NCBI GenBank assembly: GCA_964531945.1
Contig: CAZHGF010000002.1
Coordinates: 1-28,389, forward strand
Reading direction: 5' to 3'
DNA from: an uncultured Gammaproteobacteria bacterium
Lineage (GTDB): Bacteria; Patescibacteriota; Microgenomatia; UBA1406; GWC2-37-13
DNA: 28,389 bases
The notes beneath the pieces were generated by a model that did no database searches, was not told where the DNA came from, and worked only from the letters and a program-made list of their open reading frames with translations. Shown piece after piece: positions 2,669-27,298 of this stretch. Within the stretch, counting starts at the first letter, position 1; each line of letters starts with the position of its first letter. The translations under genes were made by a program, and so were the position numbers.

Positions 2669-3223
2669 ATGAAGGTATTAGCTTTGAGGTTCTCATCGGC
2701 TTATCTCAAGACTCTCAAGCGTCCAACAGTGGTTAAAATTGGGGTTATTGCTTTCGCTGCGGTGTTTATTATCATATTTATGATTTTCAATAGGGTTTAT
2801 ATAAAAAATACTGAGACAGAAATACCGAAAAGTGAAAGTAAACCCGAAGTAAAAGGAGCATCTGCATCAGCTTCAATTACCGCTTCTCCGTCAGCAACTA
2901 TTACTGTTTCACCTACGCCGACGAAATCCGTCGCGACACCAACTCCAACACCTCAACCGACGAATACTCCGGTACCTACTAATACCCCCGCTCCAACCGC
3001 TACACCGACTCCTACCCCAACTCCAACCAAAACTCCCACACCTACACCCACTCCAACTGCAGGCGCTTTGACTGCAACACCGACTCCTACTGTGAGTTCA
3101 ACACCAACAAACACTCCAACTCCCACTGGGTCATTAACTCCAACAGATACTCCTACTCCAACACCTACTTCTTCTCCAACACCAACACCGACCAATACAC
3201 CAACGCCTACTCCAACGCCTTGA
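2669..3223 (+). CDS. Membrane-anchored Pro/Thr-repeat (mucin-like) protein
   Basis: One N-terminal TM segment followed by about 110 residues of (PT)n/TPTP repeats to the C-terminus. Confidence 0.8.
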
Positions 3224-7796: not shown

Positions 7797-7813
7797 GGGG
7801 ATGTTGTGAGTTT

Positions 7814-7902
7814 TCGATCTTTGATCATCGGTGTTGGATGGCCGGTGGTAAAAGAGTGCTCTGTAAAACTTTCAGCATTGAAAGTCGAAGATCGAATATC
7901 GG
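7814..7902. repeat. Inverted heptamer tandem array (unit ~TCGATCT)
   Basis: Left tcgatct/ttgatca/tcggtgt/tggatgg/ccggtgg (7814-7848); right gcattga/aagtcga/agatcga/atatcgg (7875-7902). Confidence 0.6.
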
Positions 7903-7912
7903 ATATGTTTTT

Positions 7913-24285: not shown

Positions 24286-25800
24286 ATGCTGGCAAAAGTA
24301 TATTCAGGGACAACCGTGGGGCTTGATGGGGTGCTCATTGATGTTGAGGTGGATGTAGCGAATAAAGGATTTCCAACGTTTACAATAGTGGGGCTTCCCA
24401 ATAAGGCGATTGATGAGGCAAAAGATCGGGTTCGGACCGCGATAGTGAATGCATCGTTTGAGATGCCTGACTCGAGACTGACGGTAAATCTGGCTCCCGC
24501 TGATTTGCCAAAAGTCGGGTCAAGTTTTGATCTGCCGATTGCGGTCGGGATTCTGGTTGCGTCAGGAGTCATTGGCGCTGAACTTCCGAAGAAAAGTATA
24601 TTCGTAGGTGAACTTTCTCTGGAGGGGAAACTCCGGCGGATTCCTGGAGTTATATCGGTTGCGGCAATGGCGGGGGAAAAACAGTTCGATTCAATATTTG
24701 TTCCGGTCGAGAACGCGCCAGAGGCAGCGCTCGTTGATGATATTACCGTTTTCCCGGTGTTTAACCTGCTCGATCTTATTCTCCACATGAATGGCGAGAA
24801 ACTCATTGCTCCCTATTACTCAGATGGTCTACTTTCGCAAGATGCTCATTTTGAAGTAGATTTTGGAGATGTGAAAGGGCAAGAGCAGGCCAAACGTGCT
24901 TTAGAGATTGCCGCTGCCGGATTTCACAATGTCCACTTAAAAGGACCGCCCGGCACCGGAAAAACCTTGATATCACGTGCACTTCCCTCGATTTTGCCAG
25001 AAATGGAAAAAGAAGAGGTGATCGAGACTTCGAAAATTTACTCAATCGCAGGATTATTGAATCCGCATAAGTTTATTATGACCCGTCCTTTTCGCTCTCC
25101 ACACCATACGACTTCTCGTATCGGTCTGATTGGAGGAGGGAGTAATCCATCACCGGGTGAGATTTCTTTAGCTCATCGAGGAGTATTGTTTCTTGATGAA
25201 TTTCCCGAGTTCCCCCGCTCAGTACTGGAATCACTCCGGCAACCGCTTGAAGATGGGGTTATCACGGTATCACGGGCATCAGGAAGCTTGACATTTCCTT
25301 CGCGGTTTCTCCTCCTTGCCGCATCCAACCCGTGTCCCTGCGGATATTTGGGTCATCCGACAAAGCACTGCAAATGTCTTCCCGGAACTATTTTAAAATA
25401 CCAGAAGCGTATTTCAGGGCCGCTTCTTGACCGGATCGACCTGCACGTCGATGTACCGGTGATAGAACAGGAAAAATTACTCGGGACAGAACAGGGAGAG
25501 GTAAGTAGCGCTATACGTGAGAGGGTTGCGGAAGCGCGCGTCCGTCAGAAAAAACGATCGACTTCATTAAAAACGAAAACAAATGGAGAAATGTCGCCGC
25601 AGGATATAAAAAAGTTCTGCATGATGAACAATGAAACAAAAGCATTTTTACGACAGGCAATCAGCCGCCGCTCCCTTTCAGCACGATCATATTTTAAAGT
25701 CATTAAAGTGAGTCAAACGATTGCAGATCTGGAGGGAAGTGAGACAATTCAAGTTTCTCATATAGCAGAAGCCCTCCAATTCCGGCGGAAGGAAGAGTGA
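24286..25800 (+). CDS. comM: YifB/ComM family Mg-chelatase-like AAA+ ATPase (competence helicase)
   Basis: FTIVGLP, VNLAPAD, Walker A GPPGTGKT, RPFRSPHH, LAHRGVLFLDE, AASNPCPCG, SGPLLDRID, LSAR. Confidence 0.96.
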   Translation: MLAKVYSGTTVGLDGVLIDVEVDVANKGFPTFTIVGLPNKAIDEAKDRVRTAIVNASFEMPDSRLTVNLAPADLPKVGSSFDLPIAVGILVASGVIGAELPKKSIFVGELSLEGKLRRIPGVISVAAMAGEKQFDSIFVPVENAPEAALVDDITVFPVFNLLDLILHMNGEKLIAPYYSDGLLSQDAHFEVDFGDVKGQEQAKRALEIAAAGFHNVHLKGPPGTGKTLISRALPSILPEMEKEEVIETSKIYSIAGLLNPHKFIMTRPFRSPHHTTSRIGLIGGGSNPSPGEISLAHRGVLFLDEFPEFPRSVLESLRQPLEDGVITVSRASGSLTFPSRFLLLAASNPCPCGYLGHPTKHCKCLPGTILKYQKRISGPLLDRIDLHVDVPVIEQEKLLGTEQGEVSSAIRERVAEARVRQKKRSTSLKTKTNGEMSPQDIKKFCMMNNETKAFLRQAISRRSLSARSYFKVIKVSQTIADLEGSETIQVSHIAEALQFRRKEE

Positions 25801-25827
25801 TAGAGATGTCAGATCGCAGATGACAGA
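25798..25827. repeat. Left heptamer array flanking the four-helix-bundle gene (unit ~TGNCAGA)
   Basis: tgataga-ga-tgtcaga/tcgcaga/tgacaga; the first unit contains the comM TGA stop. Confidence 0.75.
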
Positions 25828-25840
25828 AATTGATTGAAAT

Positions 25841-26208
25841 ATGATAAAAACAAACTTTGTAAAATTAACAGTATGGAATAAATCGCATAGATTTGTATTA
25901 TCGATCTATTCGTTAACTACGCAATTTCCGCAACATGAAATCTATGGTTTGATAAGTCAAATAAGAAGATCTGCAAGCTCTGTGGCAATGAATATTGTTG
26001 AAGGTGATGAAAGGAGAACAGCGCGAGAGTATGGGCAGTTCTTATATGTTGCAAAAGTTCATTAGCAGAGACACAATATCAATTATTACTTGCCCGGGAC
26101 TTAAAGTATATAAGTGAACTTCAATTCAATAACCTGAATCTACAGGCCTCAGATATTGGAAAAATGATTAATGGTTTAATCAAATATTTACAAGGTAGAC
26201 ACGAGTAA
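25841..26208 (+). pseudogene. Four-helix-bundle protein (23S rRNA-IVP/Avd-like, TIGR02436-type) split by a 1-nt frameshift
   Basis: N-part ...VW.KSH.FVL.IY..T..FP..E.YGL.SQIRRSASSV..NIVEG stops at 26065; another frame continues SLAETQYQLLLARDLKYI...IGKMINGLIKYLQGRHE* (26059-26208). One added base near 26057 restores about 122 aa. Confidence 0.88.
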
Positions 26209-26223
26209 AATCGATCGTAGATA

Positions 26224-26251
26224 TCTGACATCAGTCATCTGTGATCTAATC
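26224..26251. repeat. Right (inverted) heptamer array flanking the four-helix-bundle gene
   Basis: tctgaca/tcagtca/tctgtga/tctaatc are reverse complements of the left-array units. Confidence 0.75.
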
Positions 26252-26263
26252 GGCGCTTTGCCC

Positions 26264-26292
26264 TTGACAAGCGTAGTTTGATACGGTAATCT
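26264..26292 (+). promoter_or_regulatory. Sigma70 promoter for the pilin pair
   Basis: TTGACA-N17-TAATCT, 10 nt before the ATG. Confidence 0.6.
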
Positions 26293-26302
26293 GTAAATTG
26301 TT

Positions 26303-26725
26303 ATGAAACTCAACAAAATTGTTTCCCCCGTAGTAACTCTTTTTGCTTTTTTATTTCTTTTTAGTGTTTCTGTTTCCGCGCAGAATGTATCGGCAAACTT
26401 ACCTTTTACGCTTCCGAGTCTGCCCTATGTTATCGGTTTTGTTATAAGACTTTTTTTTATAATAGCCGGTGTTATTGCGCTCGTTTATCTTCTTCTGGGA
26501 GCATTCGCGTGGGTTACCTCCGGAGGGAATAAGGAAAATGTTGAAAAAGCACGAGAAAAAATACAGGCTGCAATCATTGGTCTCATCCTGATTGTTATTG
26601 TCATTGTTGTTTTGGCTGCCATTGAACGATTTGTTTTTAATCAAAAAGTCTGTTTCGGACTTACCTGTGATTTGACTCTGCCTGCCCTCTTAAATCCTGA
26701 GATAACGCCAGTGCCACCGAGATAA
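26303..26725 (+). CDS. VirB2/TrbC-like (T4SS-type) pilin
   Basis: Signal peptide; AG.IA.VYLL.GAF.W.TSGG..E.V.KAR..I..AIIGL two-helix core; C-terminal Cys pair. Confidence 0.8.
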   Translation: MKLNKIVSPVVTLFAFLFLFSVSVSAQNVSANLPFTLPSLPYVIGFVIRLFFIIAGVIALVYLLLGAFAWVTSGGNKENVEKAREKIQAAIIGLILIVIVIVVLAAIERFVFNQKVCFGLTCDLTLPALLNPEITPVPPR

Positions 26726-26740
26726 CAGTACATATAAAAT

Positions 26741-27064
26741 ATGCAAGAATGGGGAGATTGTGTTGTCGATGAAATCCCAACACTCAAATGCCTTGAGGTT
26801 GTTTTCAATAATCTCATTTTTCTCTCCTCTGCAATTGCTGTTTTGGCGCTCTTCGTCATGTTTCTCTTTGCCGGGTTTACCTACCTTACTTCATTCGGGA
26901 ATCCGGAGAAAGTAAAAAAAGCGCAGGCAACCTTTCGCTACGCGATTATCGGCCTTATTATTTTTGTAAGCTCTTATCTTATCTTAAAAATTATTGATGT
27001 CCTCTTTTTGGGAGGTCAGGGACTCATCTTCCAGTTCCGGCTTCCCGGTCCGGATGGACTCTGA
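26741..27064 (+). CDS. VirB2/TrbC-like (T4SS-type) pilin, second paralog
   Basis: A..LFVMFLFAGF.YLTS.GNPEKV.KA.....YAIIGL core; N-terminal C...PTLKC Cys pair; no signal peptide. Confidence 0.8.
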   Translation: MQEWGDCVVDEIPTLKCLEVVFNNLIFLSSAIAVLALFVMFLFAGFTYLTSFGNPEKVKKAQATFRYAIIGLIIFVSSYLILKIIDVLFLGGQGLIFQFRLPGPDGL

Positions 27065-27066
27065 GG

Positions 27067-27145
27067 TATTAGATGCCTGATCACAAATCACTGATTCCAG
27101 AGATCAGTCATCAGAAATCTGCCATCTGTAATCTGACATCTATCA
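27067..27145. repeat. Empty inverted heptamer array of the same unit family as the four-helix-bundle flanks
   Basis: Left tattaga/tgcctga/tcacaaa/tcactga; 9-nt centre; right tcagtca/tcagaaa/tctgcca/tctgtaa/tctgaca/tctatca. Confidence 0.8.
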
Positions 27146-27298
27146 TCTATTTTGTTCCGGGGTTACATAAATCACTTTCACTCCTTTGCTATCAGGAAGC
27201 GGAGAAATGAGGATATCTGAGTCTCTCAGAAAAAGAATACTTATATAAATAAGAAGTGTTATCCCGAGGACAATAAACACGTAACCGAAAAATTTCAT
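27143..27298 (-). CDS. Small single-TM membrane protein (51 aa)
   Basis: MKFFGYVFIVLGITLLIYISILFL...; its ATG overlaps the GT2 stop (ATGA), so the start is reassigned from 27451. Confidence 0.65.
   Translation of the reverse strand: MKFFGYVFIVLGITLLIYISILFLRDSDILISPLPDSKGVKVIYVTPEQNR

Follow-up and report, generated by a model that had tools for sequence, protein, structure and literature searches.

Inverted arrays of heptanucleotide units bracket a four-helix-bundle (4HB) gene of the 23S rRNA intervening sequence (IVS) protein family, which lies between comM and a pilin promoter in a 28,389-nt stretch of contig CAZHGF010000002.1 (hereafter, the window). Comparison with related genomes indicates that the array-gene-array segment, 25798-26251, is a discrete unit. 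We estimate a probability of about 0.6 that it is an IVS-type cassette located outside rRNA, the arms of which would pair in RNA to form a stem cut by RNase III. The combination of an IVS-type open reading frame (ORF), heptamers and a stem is known from rRNA genes; what appears to be new is an element of this type outside rRNA and a heptamer bracket that extends through the protein family. There is no rRNA gene in the window, where the Rfam matches are limited to a tmRNA and a tRNA.

The 4HB gene and its arrays in the window and close relatives

The 4HB gene matches PF05635 at 129 bits against a cut-off of 33.8 (E 1e-37, profile positions 2-106 of 106) and TIGR02436 at 125 bits against 24, in both cases with the query repaired by one base. 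These matches and the coordinates bear out the first-pass annotation of this DNA, which had placed such a gene between comM and the pilin promoter. The motif R-x3-S-x3-N-x2-E (quoted in PMC3936711) is present, with Q40, R43, S47, N51 and E54 invariant in a 40-sequence alignment, and the solved relatives XCC0516 (2GSC) and 2RLD were matched. The product has 122 aa once one A is restored: in the window, a 1-nt deletion in an A-run (Table 1) brings in a premature TAG at 26063-26065. The same locus is present in two short Logan contigs, L001 and L002, the first of which has an intact 4HB frame of 121 aa, and the second, a CAA>TAA nonsense change. The lesions of the window and L002 are independent and are either recent or sequencing errors; that of the window lies in a homopolymer. 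Between the window and L001, the dN/dS of the 4HB gene is 0.073 at dS 0.81, comparable with comM next to it (0.056) and with the two pilin genes (0.035, 0.12); purifying selection has therefore acted on the 4HB protein during most of the divergence of these two lineages.

The nearest relatives of the 4HB gene in GTDB, at 54-58% identity, come from Microgenomates of the candidate phyla radiation (CPR), namely, Roizman-, Shapiro- and Beckwithbacteria, and by this measure, the host looks CPR-like. In another record labelled 'uncultured Gammaproteobacteria' (L074), a 4HB gene (1269-1631) is located amid a row of genes similar to type IV secretion system (T4SS) pilins (100-1980), as in the window, and these neighbours resemble those of the window. 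We suspect that L074 is a CPR genome as well.

The left array starts with tgataga (25798-25804), the first bases of which are the comM stop codon TGA (25798-25800); after two more bases follow tgtcaga (25807-25813), tcgcaga (25814-25820) and tgacaga (25821-25827) in exact 7-nt register. Read in the other phase, these three units are GATGTCA GATCGCA GATGACA, with a purine-rich sense strand, and the TGA/TAG triplets of the array close all three frames ahead of the 4HB ATG (25841), which lies 13 nt past the array. The right array follows the 4HB stop codon (26207-26209) and consists of units of the reverse-complement type, the last four in register (tctgaca 26224-26230, tcagtca 26231-26237, tctgtga 26238-26244, tctaatc 26245-26251) and preceded by two weaker ones from 26211 (tcgatcg, tagata(t)), so that there are up to six units. 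Thus, the array-gene-array arrangement that had been reported for this locus is confirmed, including the reverse-complement relationship of the two sides; the 3-4 tandem units described on the left resolve into three in-phase units and one out of phase.

Both arrays were detected with a custom autocorrelation scan; TRF at a minimum score of 30 reported only 27098-27148 and not the flanking arrays. The consensus GATNNCAGATNNCAGA, with at most one mismatch, has 8 matches in the window against 0.14 expected (none of 100 shuffles reaches 8), all of them confined to the two flanking arrays and a third site, 27111-27147. The arms are complementary along 17 nt at 88% (25811-25827 with 26231-26247) and, in an alternative register shifted by 21 nt, that is, three units, at 10 of 10 positions (25805-25814 with 26223-26232). 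The complementarity of the flanks is the best among 30 window genes; of 2000 shuffles, 3 reach it, as do 7 of 2000 randomly chosen positions with this geometry. As tandem heptanucleotides in intergenic DNA, the arrays resemble the short tandemly repeated repetitive (STRR) sequences of cyanobacteria.

The cassette is present in both L001 and L002, which encode a 4HB protein ~87% identical and a ComM 91-92% identical to those of the window. In both, the left array has two heptamers more than in the window, and the GAT..CA positions are kept, with the two middle bases variable. A metagenome scan with comM yielded four further contigs (L083, L085, L086, L088) that encode a ComM 66-70% identical to that of the window and retain the order surface protein (big626)-comM-pilin1-pilin2-glycosyltransferase (GT) but contain neither a 4HB gene nor arrays between comM and pilin1. 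In three of these (L083, L085, L088), the pilin promoter (TTGACA, 17 nt, TATTAT/TAAAAT) starts 5-30 nt past the comM stop and precedes the ATG; in the window, the same promoter comes after the last heptamer, as GCGCTTTGCCC-TTGACA at 26264. The segment by which the window differs from these empty sites is exactly 25798/9-26251, so the boundaries of the insertion or deletion coincide with the outer ends of the arrays, as expected of the terminal inverted repeats of MITEs (miniature inverted-repeat transposable elements). No target-site duplication is visible at the boundaries, where the empty sites are ~30% diverged at the protein level. Given that four syntenic relatives lack both the 4HB gene and the arrays, the comparison shows the array-gene-array segment to be one discrete insertion/deletion unit spanning from the comM stop to the pilin promoter. 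This supports the earlier proposal that gene and arrays form a unit, which was to be checked by comparing orthologous comM-pilin loci for presence or absence of the cassette.

Other small insertions occur at or near this locus. In L086, the place of the cassette is taken by an unrelated insert of ~230 nt (2650-2900) with palindromic repeats of the GCAATGAC/GTCATTGC type; the spacer between comM and the pilin gene seems to be a site where small elements settle. In L085 (2029-2498) and L086 (640-1130), a divergent 4HB gene with its own inverted heptamers is located just 5' of comM. The gene of L085 is 24% identical to that of the window and is flanked by TCAGAAT and ATTCTAG units; the 4HB-like ORF of L086 is a weaker match, and its inverted heptamers, AAATCTC/GAGATTT, have the reversed polarity.

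A second lineage carries a cassette after comM. In the complete genome of a member of Beckwithbacteria (CP011210), the gene order is dprA-comM-[array]-4HB-[array]-yraN, and the left array, GATAGTT GATTGTC GATCGTA GATAGTA GATAGTA, begins at the comM stop. Among other contigs, L090 has comM and yraN 9 nt apart, and in L089, they are separated by 125 nt with CTGAAAC-type heptamers. Relatives without the cassette lie between the two lineages. Two histories would account for the post-comM cassettes: the site was hit repeatedly, or the cassette is old here and was cleanly lost more than once. The window copy itself has been positionally stable since the split from L001 (dS ~0.8). This stability and the post-comM location of the Beckwithbacteria relative lend no support to the 'autonomous-like' behaviour attributed to the unit in the first-pass annotation.

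Inverted short-period arrays across the 4HB family

The IVS protein family (S23p, 'four helix bundle protein') is very large and includes members in CPR bacteria, cyanobacteria and phage contigs. We compared the 100-nt flanks of the 80 best homologue loci, one genome per GTDB species, which span CPR, Bacillota, Bacteroidota, Nitrospirota, Chloroflexota, Planctomycetota, Omnitrophota, Aquificota and other phyla. Upstream and downstream flanks of the same gene pair far better than flanks taken from mismatched loci. With the 95th percentile of the local alignments in this mismatched-locus control as the threshold, inverted flanks were found for 59 of the 80 homologues (74%), compared with 5 of 171 neighbouring genes (2.9%; Fisher odds ratio 93, p 3e-33), the kind of enrichment that the first-pass annotation had put forward as a check. 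A strict array detector, which requires at least 21 of 28 positions to match at the given period and found nothing in 423 kb of shuffled DNA, shows array density to be 19-fold higher within ~100 nt of the ends of 4HB genes than in the remainder of these loci (p 6e-50). The significant flank arrays have periods of 7 (56 arrays), 8 (12), 9 (9) and 12 (1). They have a fixed polarity: on the sense strand, purines predominate in the upstream arm in 49 of 59 cases (p 9e-8), and 18 units contain AGAT or TAGA, compared with 2 that contain the reverse complements.

The units themselves are diverse. Paired arms consist of TAGATGC in Roizmanbacteria (L003), CAGATNN in Shapirobacteria, GGGGTAN in Desulfacinum, CAGCTNT in Gemmataceae, the 8-nt GCGTCCAG in a genome of Chloroflexota and the 9-nt GTAGAGGCT in a genome of Bacteroidales. 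In genomes with two cassettes (L079, L016, L028, L032, and L004 with L022, which come from the same metagenome-assembled genome), the units and even the periods differ from copy to copy, for example, GGGACGA vs GAGACCT in the two copies of L079, or 7-nt CAGATNN vs 8-nt GTAGATAA; within each cassette, the arms match. A core of the form CAGA(A/T) or YAGAT recurs in CPR, Coxiella and Nostocales. Stop triplets are more frequent in the units in the inward than in the outward direction (2.97 vs 1.66 per array; 45 arrays vs 16, p 3e-4), and, given a period that is not a multiple of three, they close all three frames inward in 35 of 77 arrays and outward in 18 of the 77.

The bracket is not limited to chromosomal loci. 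It is present in 13 of 15 viral loci from IMG/VR, and among plasmids (PLSDB), 29 records contain a 4HB relative, at least 22 of them cyanobacterial, including Nostoc (10), Calothrix (4), Trichormus (2) and one each of Anabaena, Scytonema, Aulosira, Picosynechococcus, Pseudanabaena and Leptolyngbya. Four plasmid loci were examined (L178-L181): two have arrays on both sides, one on the 3' side only, and one has none. In the two with arrays on both sides, these consist of (TCAGAAT/TCAGGAG)x5 ahead of the ATG and TCCTGAC-type units across the stop codon; in Trichormus plasmid C and N. punctiforme pNPUN02, the 4HB gene, with heptamer arrays on both sides, is located in a row of conjugation genes. 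In 427 kb of DNA selected only for comM, nine arrays are present; just two have period 7, and these lie on either side of the divergent 4HB gene of L085. Across these comparisons, a bracket of inverted arrays, mostly of period 7 and with a purine-rich upstream arm, stands out as a hallmark of the 4HB gene family. Such a family-wide bracket of free-standing members is not described in the searchable literature, which leaves out subscription journals.

Similar units also occur without a 4HB gene. About 0.9 kb downstream of the cassette, at 27070-27151, there is an ORF-less hairpin, unnoticed in the first-pass annotation, in which (GATNNCA)x4 (GATCACA AATCACT GATTCCA GAGATCA) is followed by (ATCNNNN)x6 (ATCAGAA ATCTGCC ATCTGTA ATCTGAC ATCTATC ATCTATT). 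The minus-strand RNA of this region folds at -31.7 kcal/mol (z -4.15). The hairpin is present in L001, with better left units, and absent from L083, L085 and L088. The 14-nt/7-nt repeat that TRF reports at 27098-27148 was considered as a one-sided third array, which L001 and the folding rule out: it is the right arm of this inverted pair.

Two other places in the window contain inverted heptamers. At 29-103, 4 nt before the tmRNA gene (107-524), lies a hairpin of a different heptamer (ATGAGTT/AACTCAT), with the arms ATGAGTT ATGAGTT CAGGGTT CGGGGTT and AAAACTC ATAACCC ATAACGC ATAACTC; its plus-strand RNA folds at -28 kcal/mol (z -4.6), and its upstream context is cut by the window edge. At 7801-7906, in the spacer between an HSP20 gene and a ZIP transporter gene, the two sides of a weak inverted heptamer-like pair, TTCGATC TTTGATC ... 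TCGAAGA TCGAATA TCGGATA, lie 60 nt apart; the pair may be what is left of a solo element.

In the 4HB-selected loci, arrays away from the 4HB gene reach 0.18 per kb, compared with 0.021 per kb in the comM background, a ninefold difference. In 37% of the cases, the unit of such a solo array is also that of the cassette at its own locus, vs 4% for cassettes of other loci (p 8e-9); by unit sequence, they belong to the same system as the cassettes.

Relationship to rRNA intervening sequences and competing explanations

The IVS of Coxiella burnetii is a 428-nt element in helix 45 of the 23S rRNA that contains an S23p ORF of the same family (Warrier et al. 2016, PMC4990558). Its termini form a 28-bp stem, which RNase III cuts at the first repeat, and two or three GACAGAT units plus GACAGAA stand directly before the ATG, with strains differing by one unit (PMC4990558). 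The two elements share the same-family ORF of ~120 aa, damaged in some strains, a length of ~430-450 nt, terminal inverted repeats that form a stem around the ORF, and GACAGAT-type heptamers before the ATG, which in the window read GTCAGAT CGCAGAT GACAGAA, with the ATG 13 nt on. In both, the number of heptamers varies between strains (in the window lineage, L001 has two more). Judged by its sequence, the window element is the same kind of object as the Coxiella IVS, outside rRNA, a match, heptamers included, that the first-pass annotation did not draw. The Coxiella element, however, resides in 23S rRNA, whereas that of the window lies between comM and a pilin gene and thus has no position in rRNA; RNase III cleavage has been demonstrated in Coxiella and is only predicted for the window. 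Furthermore, the Coxiella authors concluded that the S23p protein is probably not made and that the ORF is decaying (PMC4990558), whereas the dN/dS of 0.07 at the window indicates long-term selection on the protein.

The IVSs and rRNA insertions of Leptospira, Salmonella and CPR are likewise bounded by a stem, with or without a 23S_rRNA_IVP ORF (PMC4990558, PMC11270868); in CPR, rRNA insertions carrying such ORFs have been described (Tsurumaki et al. 2024, PMC11270868). The window offers a parallel to the ORF-containing and ORF-less forms in the cassette and the hairpin at 27070-27151, respectively. These insertions are, however, defined by their position in rRNA genes, and neither heptamer-periodic arms nor a rule for free-standing copies is described in the searchable papers on them.

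Under the IVS-type interpretation, the cassette would be transcribed by read-through from comM, because the 13 nt between the left array and the ATG leave no room for a promoter of its own. In the transcript, the arrays would pair into an imperfect stem of ~17-25 bp, with 5-bp CAGAU/AUCUG helices every 7 nt, that encloses the ORF; indeed, a terminal stem closes the whole gene in both the minimum free energy (MFE) and the centroid folds, as in IVSs. RNase III would cut the predicted stem, as it does in rRNA IVSs, and free the cassette RNA from the host transcript, which would let the element sit inside a transcription unit while the host message is spared. Arms made of tandem copies could each gain or lose units by slippage and would still find a register in which to pair, and we propose that this is the reason for both the periodicity and the changes in copy number; the two additional left units of L001 and the one-unit difference between Coxiella strains are consistent with slippage. 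The inward stop triplets may also halt incoming ribosomes in all three frames, a barrier that the stop counts across the family partly support.

Several observations weigh against this interpretation. The fold of the whole cassette is not significantly more stable than those of shuffled sequences (z -1.2), and the window stem is short and imperfect. A test for selection at the level of sense-strand RNA gave 78 G.U-type vs 62 A.C-type mismatches, which is not significant (p 0.2). In several viral cassettes, a sigma-70-like promoter is found between the 5' array and the ATG, and therefore, the 5' arm is not always part of the gene's own transcript. Slippage alone leaves unexplained the preference for period 7 over 6 or 8, the YAGAT/CAGA core shared by distant lineages and the fixed polarity, and periods 9 and 12 never give a three-frame stop.

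An alternative that we consider possible but on the whole unlikely is a 'cargo MITE' mobile at the DNA level, in which the arrays would be terminal inverted repeats, moved in trans by an enzyme of the host or of another element, or through hairpin- or cruciform-dependent recombination, and the ORF-less hairpins would be non-autonomous derivatives; RNA processing is compatible with this as a secondary property, so that the two explanations may be complementary. The match between the presence/absence boundaries and the outer array ends fits such an element, as do the confinement of the solo hairpin at 27070-27151, too, to the lineage of the window and L001, the sharing of units between solo arrays and the cassettes of their loci (37% vs 4% in controls), the ninefold excess of arrays in the far zones of 4HB loci over unselected comM loci, the internal promoters of some cassettes and the many unrelated sites that cassettes occupy, including cas operons (inside which such genes have been noted in the literature), phage contigs and conjugative plasmids. 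Against it stand the absence of any transposase, integrase or reverse transcriptase from the domain scans of the ORFs in the 28-kb window (the lack of a transposase had been pointed out in the first-pass annotation), the lack of a visible target-site duplication across 30% protein divergence, the stability of the window copy since dS ~0.8 along with the same post-comM position in Beckwithbacteria, and the differing units of paralogous cassettes within one genome (L079, L004/L022), which make one shared recognition sequence less likely. The Correia elements of Neisseria are short MITEs with inverted ends and no transposase that are intergenic and co-transcribed and have stems processed by RNase III. 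They differ from the cassette in having unique-sequence ends, no conserved protein gene and target-site duplications, of which none is seen at the window cassette.

It has also been suggested that the 4HB protein binds the periodic arms of its own cassette, as DNA or RNA, which could have a role in autoregulation, shield the stem, or maintain and spread the arrays. The coupling of gene and arrays is tight, specific and of fixed polarity, the gene is under purifying selection, and the CAGA(A/T)/YAGAT core recurs in CPR, Coxiella and Nostocales. The related protein Avd is established as a pentameric nucleic-acid- and reverse transcriptase-binding protein. Solved relatives of the 4HB protein, such as XCC0516 (2GSC), are described as pentameric rings (PMC4990558). 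The units, however, vary widely across lineages and paralogues, while the proteins remain 40-60% identical, periods of 8, 9 and 12 occur too, and in Coxiella, the protein is judged probably not made and decaying (PMC4990558), so we regard arm binding as improbable. A chance association of generic STRR-like repeats with a short gene, or a leftover Avd of a diversity-generating retroelement (DGR), is far less probable still. Heptanucleotide repeats are, according to the literature, the commonest long simple repeats in prokaryotes, for which polymerase slippage has been proposed (Xanthomonas campestris, the source of XCC0516, is named among the repeat-rich genomes), and the window contains further heptamer hairpins; the chance reading is nevertheless effectively refuted by the enrichments (p 6e-50 and p 3e-33) and by the 427 kb of background DNA, without a single period-7 array away from a 4HB gene, and it does not fit arms that are complementary within cassettes and built of units that differ between cassettes.

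The 'Avd-like' label of the first-pass annotation holds at the level of the fold, which belongs to the same 4HB superfamily, with weak matches to bAvd (E 9e-9) and NF033474 (E 8e-11); the nearest phage family in PHROGs (E 4e-15) is named 'Avd protein of DGR'. Beyond the fold, the label fails: the scores stay below the curated cut-offs, with 42.3 bits vs 80 for the Avd equivalog NF033474 and 36.3 vs 40 for PF22296 (bAvd), and no reverse transcriptase domain was detected among the 31 window ORFs scanned, a scan in which template and variable repeats were not searched for. With no reverse transcriptase in 28 kb and scores under the Avd cut-offs, identity with a DGR Avd was rejected.

Plasmid-borne 4HB relatives are concentrated in Nostoc, Calothrix and Anabaena/Trichormus, the taxa in which STRR heptamers were first described. 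The window unit GATNNCA is not known to be among the named STRR units, and its host is CPR-like rather than cyanobacterial. Like the cassette arrays, STRRs and the TAACTGA repeats of Beggiatoaceae, which abut start codons (MacGregor 2015, PMC4679880), are tandem 7-nt intergenic units of variable copy number that often end right before a start codon. Unlike them, they are described as dispersed direct repeats rather than as paired inverted arms around one gene family, and the unit sequences differ.

Across the family, the 4HB gene is nearly always found inside a polar bracket of inverted arrays and is gained or lost with it in one piece, and empty brackets exist. This ties together three puzzles, namely, the IVS proteins, the origin of the rRNA intervening sequences and the origin of heptanucleotide arrays. 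We know of no function assigned to the IVS proteins in more than 30 years. In a broader scheme, which we advance as speculative and doubtful, 4HB genes, inverted heptamer arrays and ORF-less hairpins would together constitute an unrecognised, widespread class of transposase-less selfish cassettes, with the pentameric 4HB protein as the element's own factor that recognises, protects or propagates the arms; rRNA IVSs would then be no more than the copies that ended up in rRNA, and a substantial part of the heptanucleotide repeats of prokaryotes, those of the cyanobacterial STRR type among them, would be the trace left by these elements. For annotators, the bracket provides a signature of cassettes outside rRNA genes and of the fragmented transcripts that these may cause.

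Genomic context and minor observations

The window (28.4 kb, 42% G+C) contains ordinary housekeeping and envelope genes, one tmRNA and one tRNA-Met. Toward its right end lie, in this order, the gene of a 626-aa surface protein, comM, the cassette, two T4SS-pilin-like genes, a small membrane gene in convergent orientation and a glycosyltransferase gene of family 2 (Table 1). PADLOC returned no match in the window and thus no membership in a known defence system, and a scan for consensus promoters and terminators yielded nothing above chance, missing even the conserved pilin promoter, which adjoins the cassette from the outside.

Table 1. Coordinates of the cassette, its parts and the adjacent features in the window.
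Feature	Position	Strand	Basis or remark
comM, Mg-chelatase-like AAA+ protein	24286..25800	+	Pfam Mg_chelatase/ChlI/Mg_chelatase_C
Left (5') heptamer array	25798..25827	+	tgataga, (ga), tgtcaga, tcgcaga, tgacaga
Predicted closing stem, 5' arm	25805..25827	+	inverted-repeat search; MFE and centroid folds
4HB gene, TIGR02436/PF05635 (23S rRNA IVS protein family)	25841..26209	+	Pfam and TIGRFAM profiles
Frameshift site, AAAA run (AAAAA in L001, L002)	26053..26056	+	alignment with relatives
Right (3') heptamer array, minus-strand reading GATNNCA	26211..26251	-	sequence; kept with changes in L001/L002
Predicted closing stem, 3' arm, two pairing registers 21 nt apart	26223..26247	+	inverted-repeat search; folds
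Pilin promoter: -35 TTGACA 26264-26269, 17-nt spacer, -10 TAATCT 26287-26292	26264..26292	+	read from sequence
pilin1, small T4SS-pilin-like gene	26303-26725		follows cassette
pilin2, small T4SS-pilin-like gene	26741-27064		
ORF-less hairpin of cassette-type units	27070..27151	no strand	between convergent pilin2 and small membrane gene

The pilin ATG (26303) lies ~10 nt past the -10 element, in the arrangement TTGACA-17 nt-TAATCT-gtaaattgtt-ATG, without a Shine-Dalgarno sequence. Because this layout is conserved in L083, L085 and L088, the pilin mRNA is probably leaderless or nearly so.

Elsewhere in the window, the ORF at 2669-3223, which has no Pfam match, contains tandem repeats of 12, 18 and 30 nt rich in ACTCC/ACACC (2983-3220) that would encode a Thr/Pro-rich low-complexity tail. 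The tag peptide that ARAGORN predicts for the tmRNA (107-524), VNKDIEDLKAFVKDYIASAMGLNQSRAYAFAA, has 32 residues, which is unusually long.

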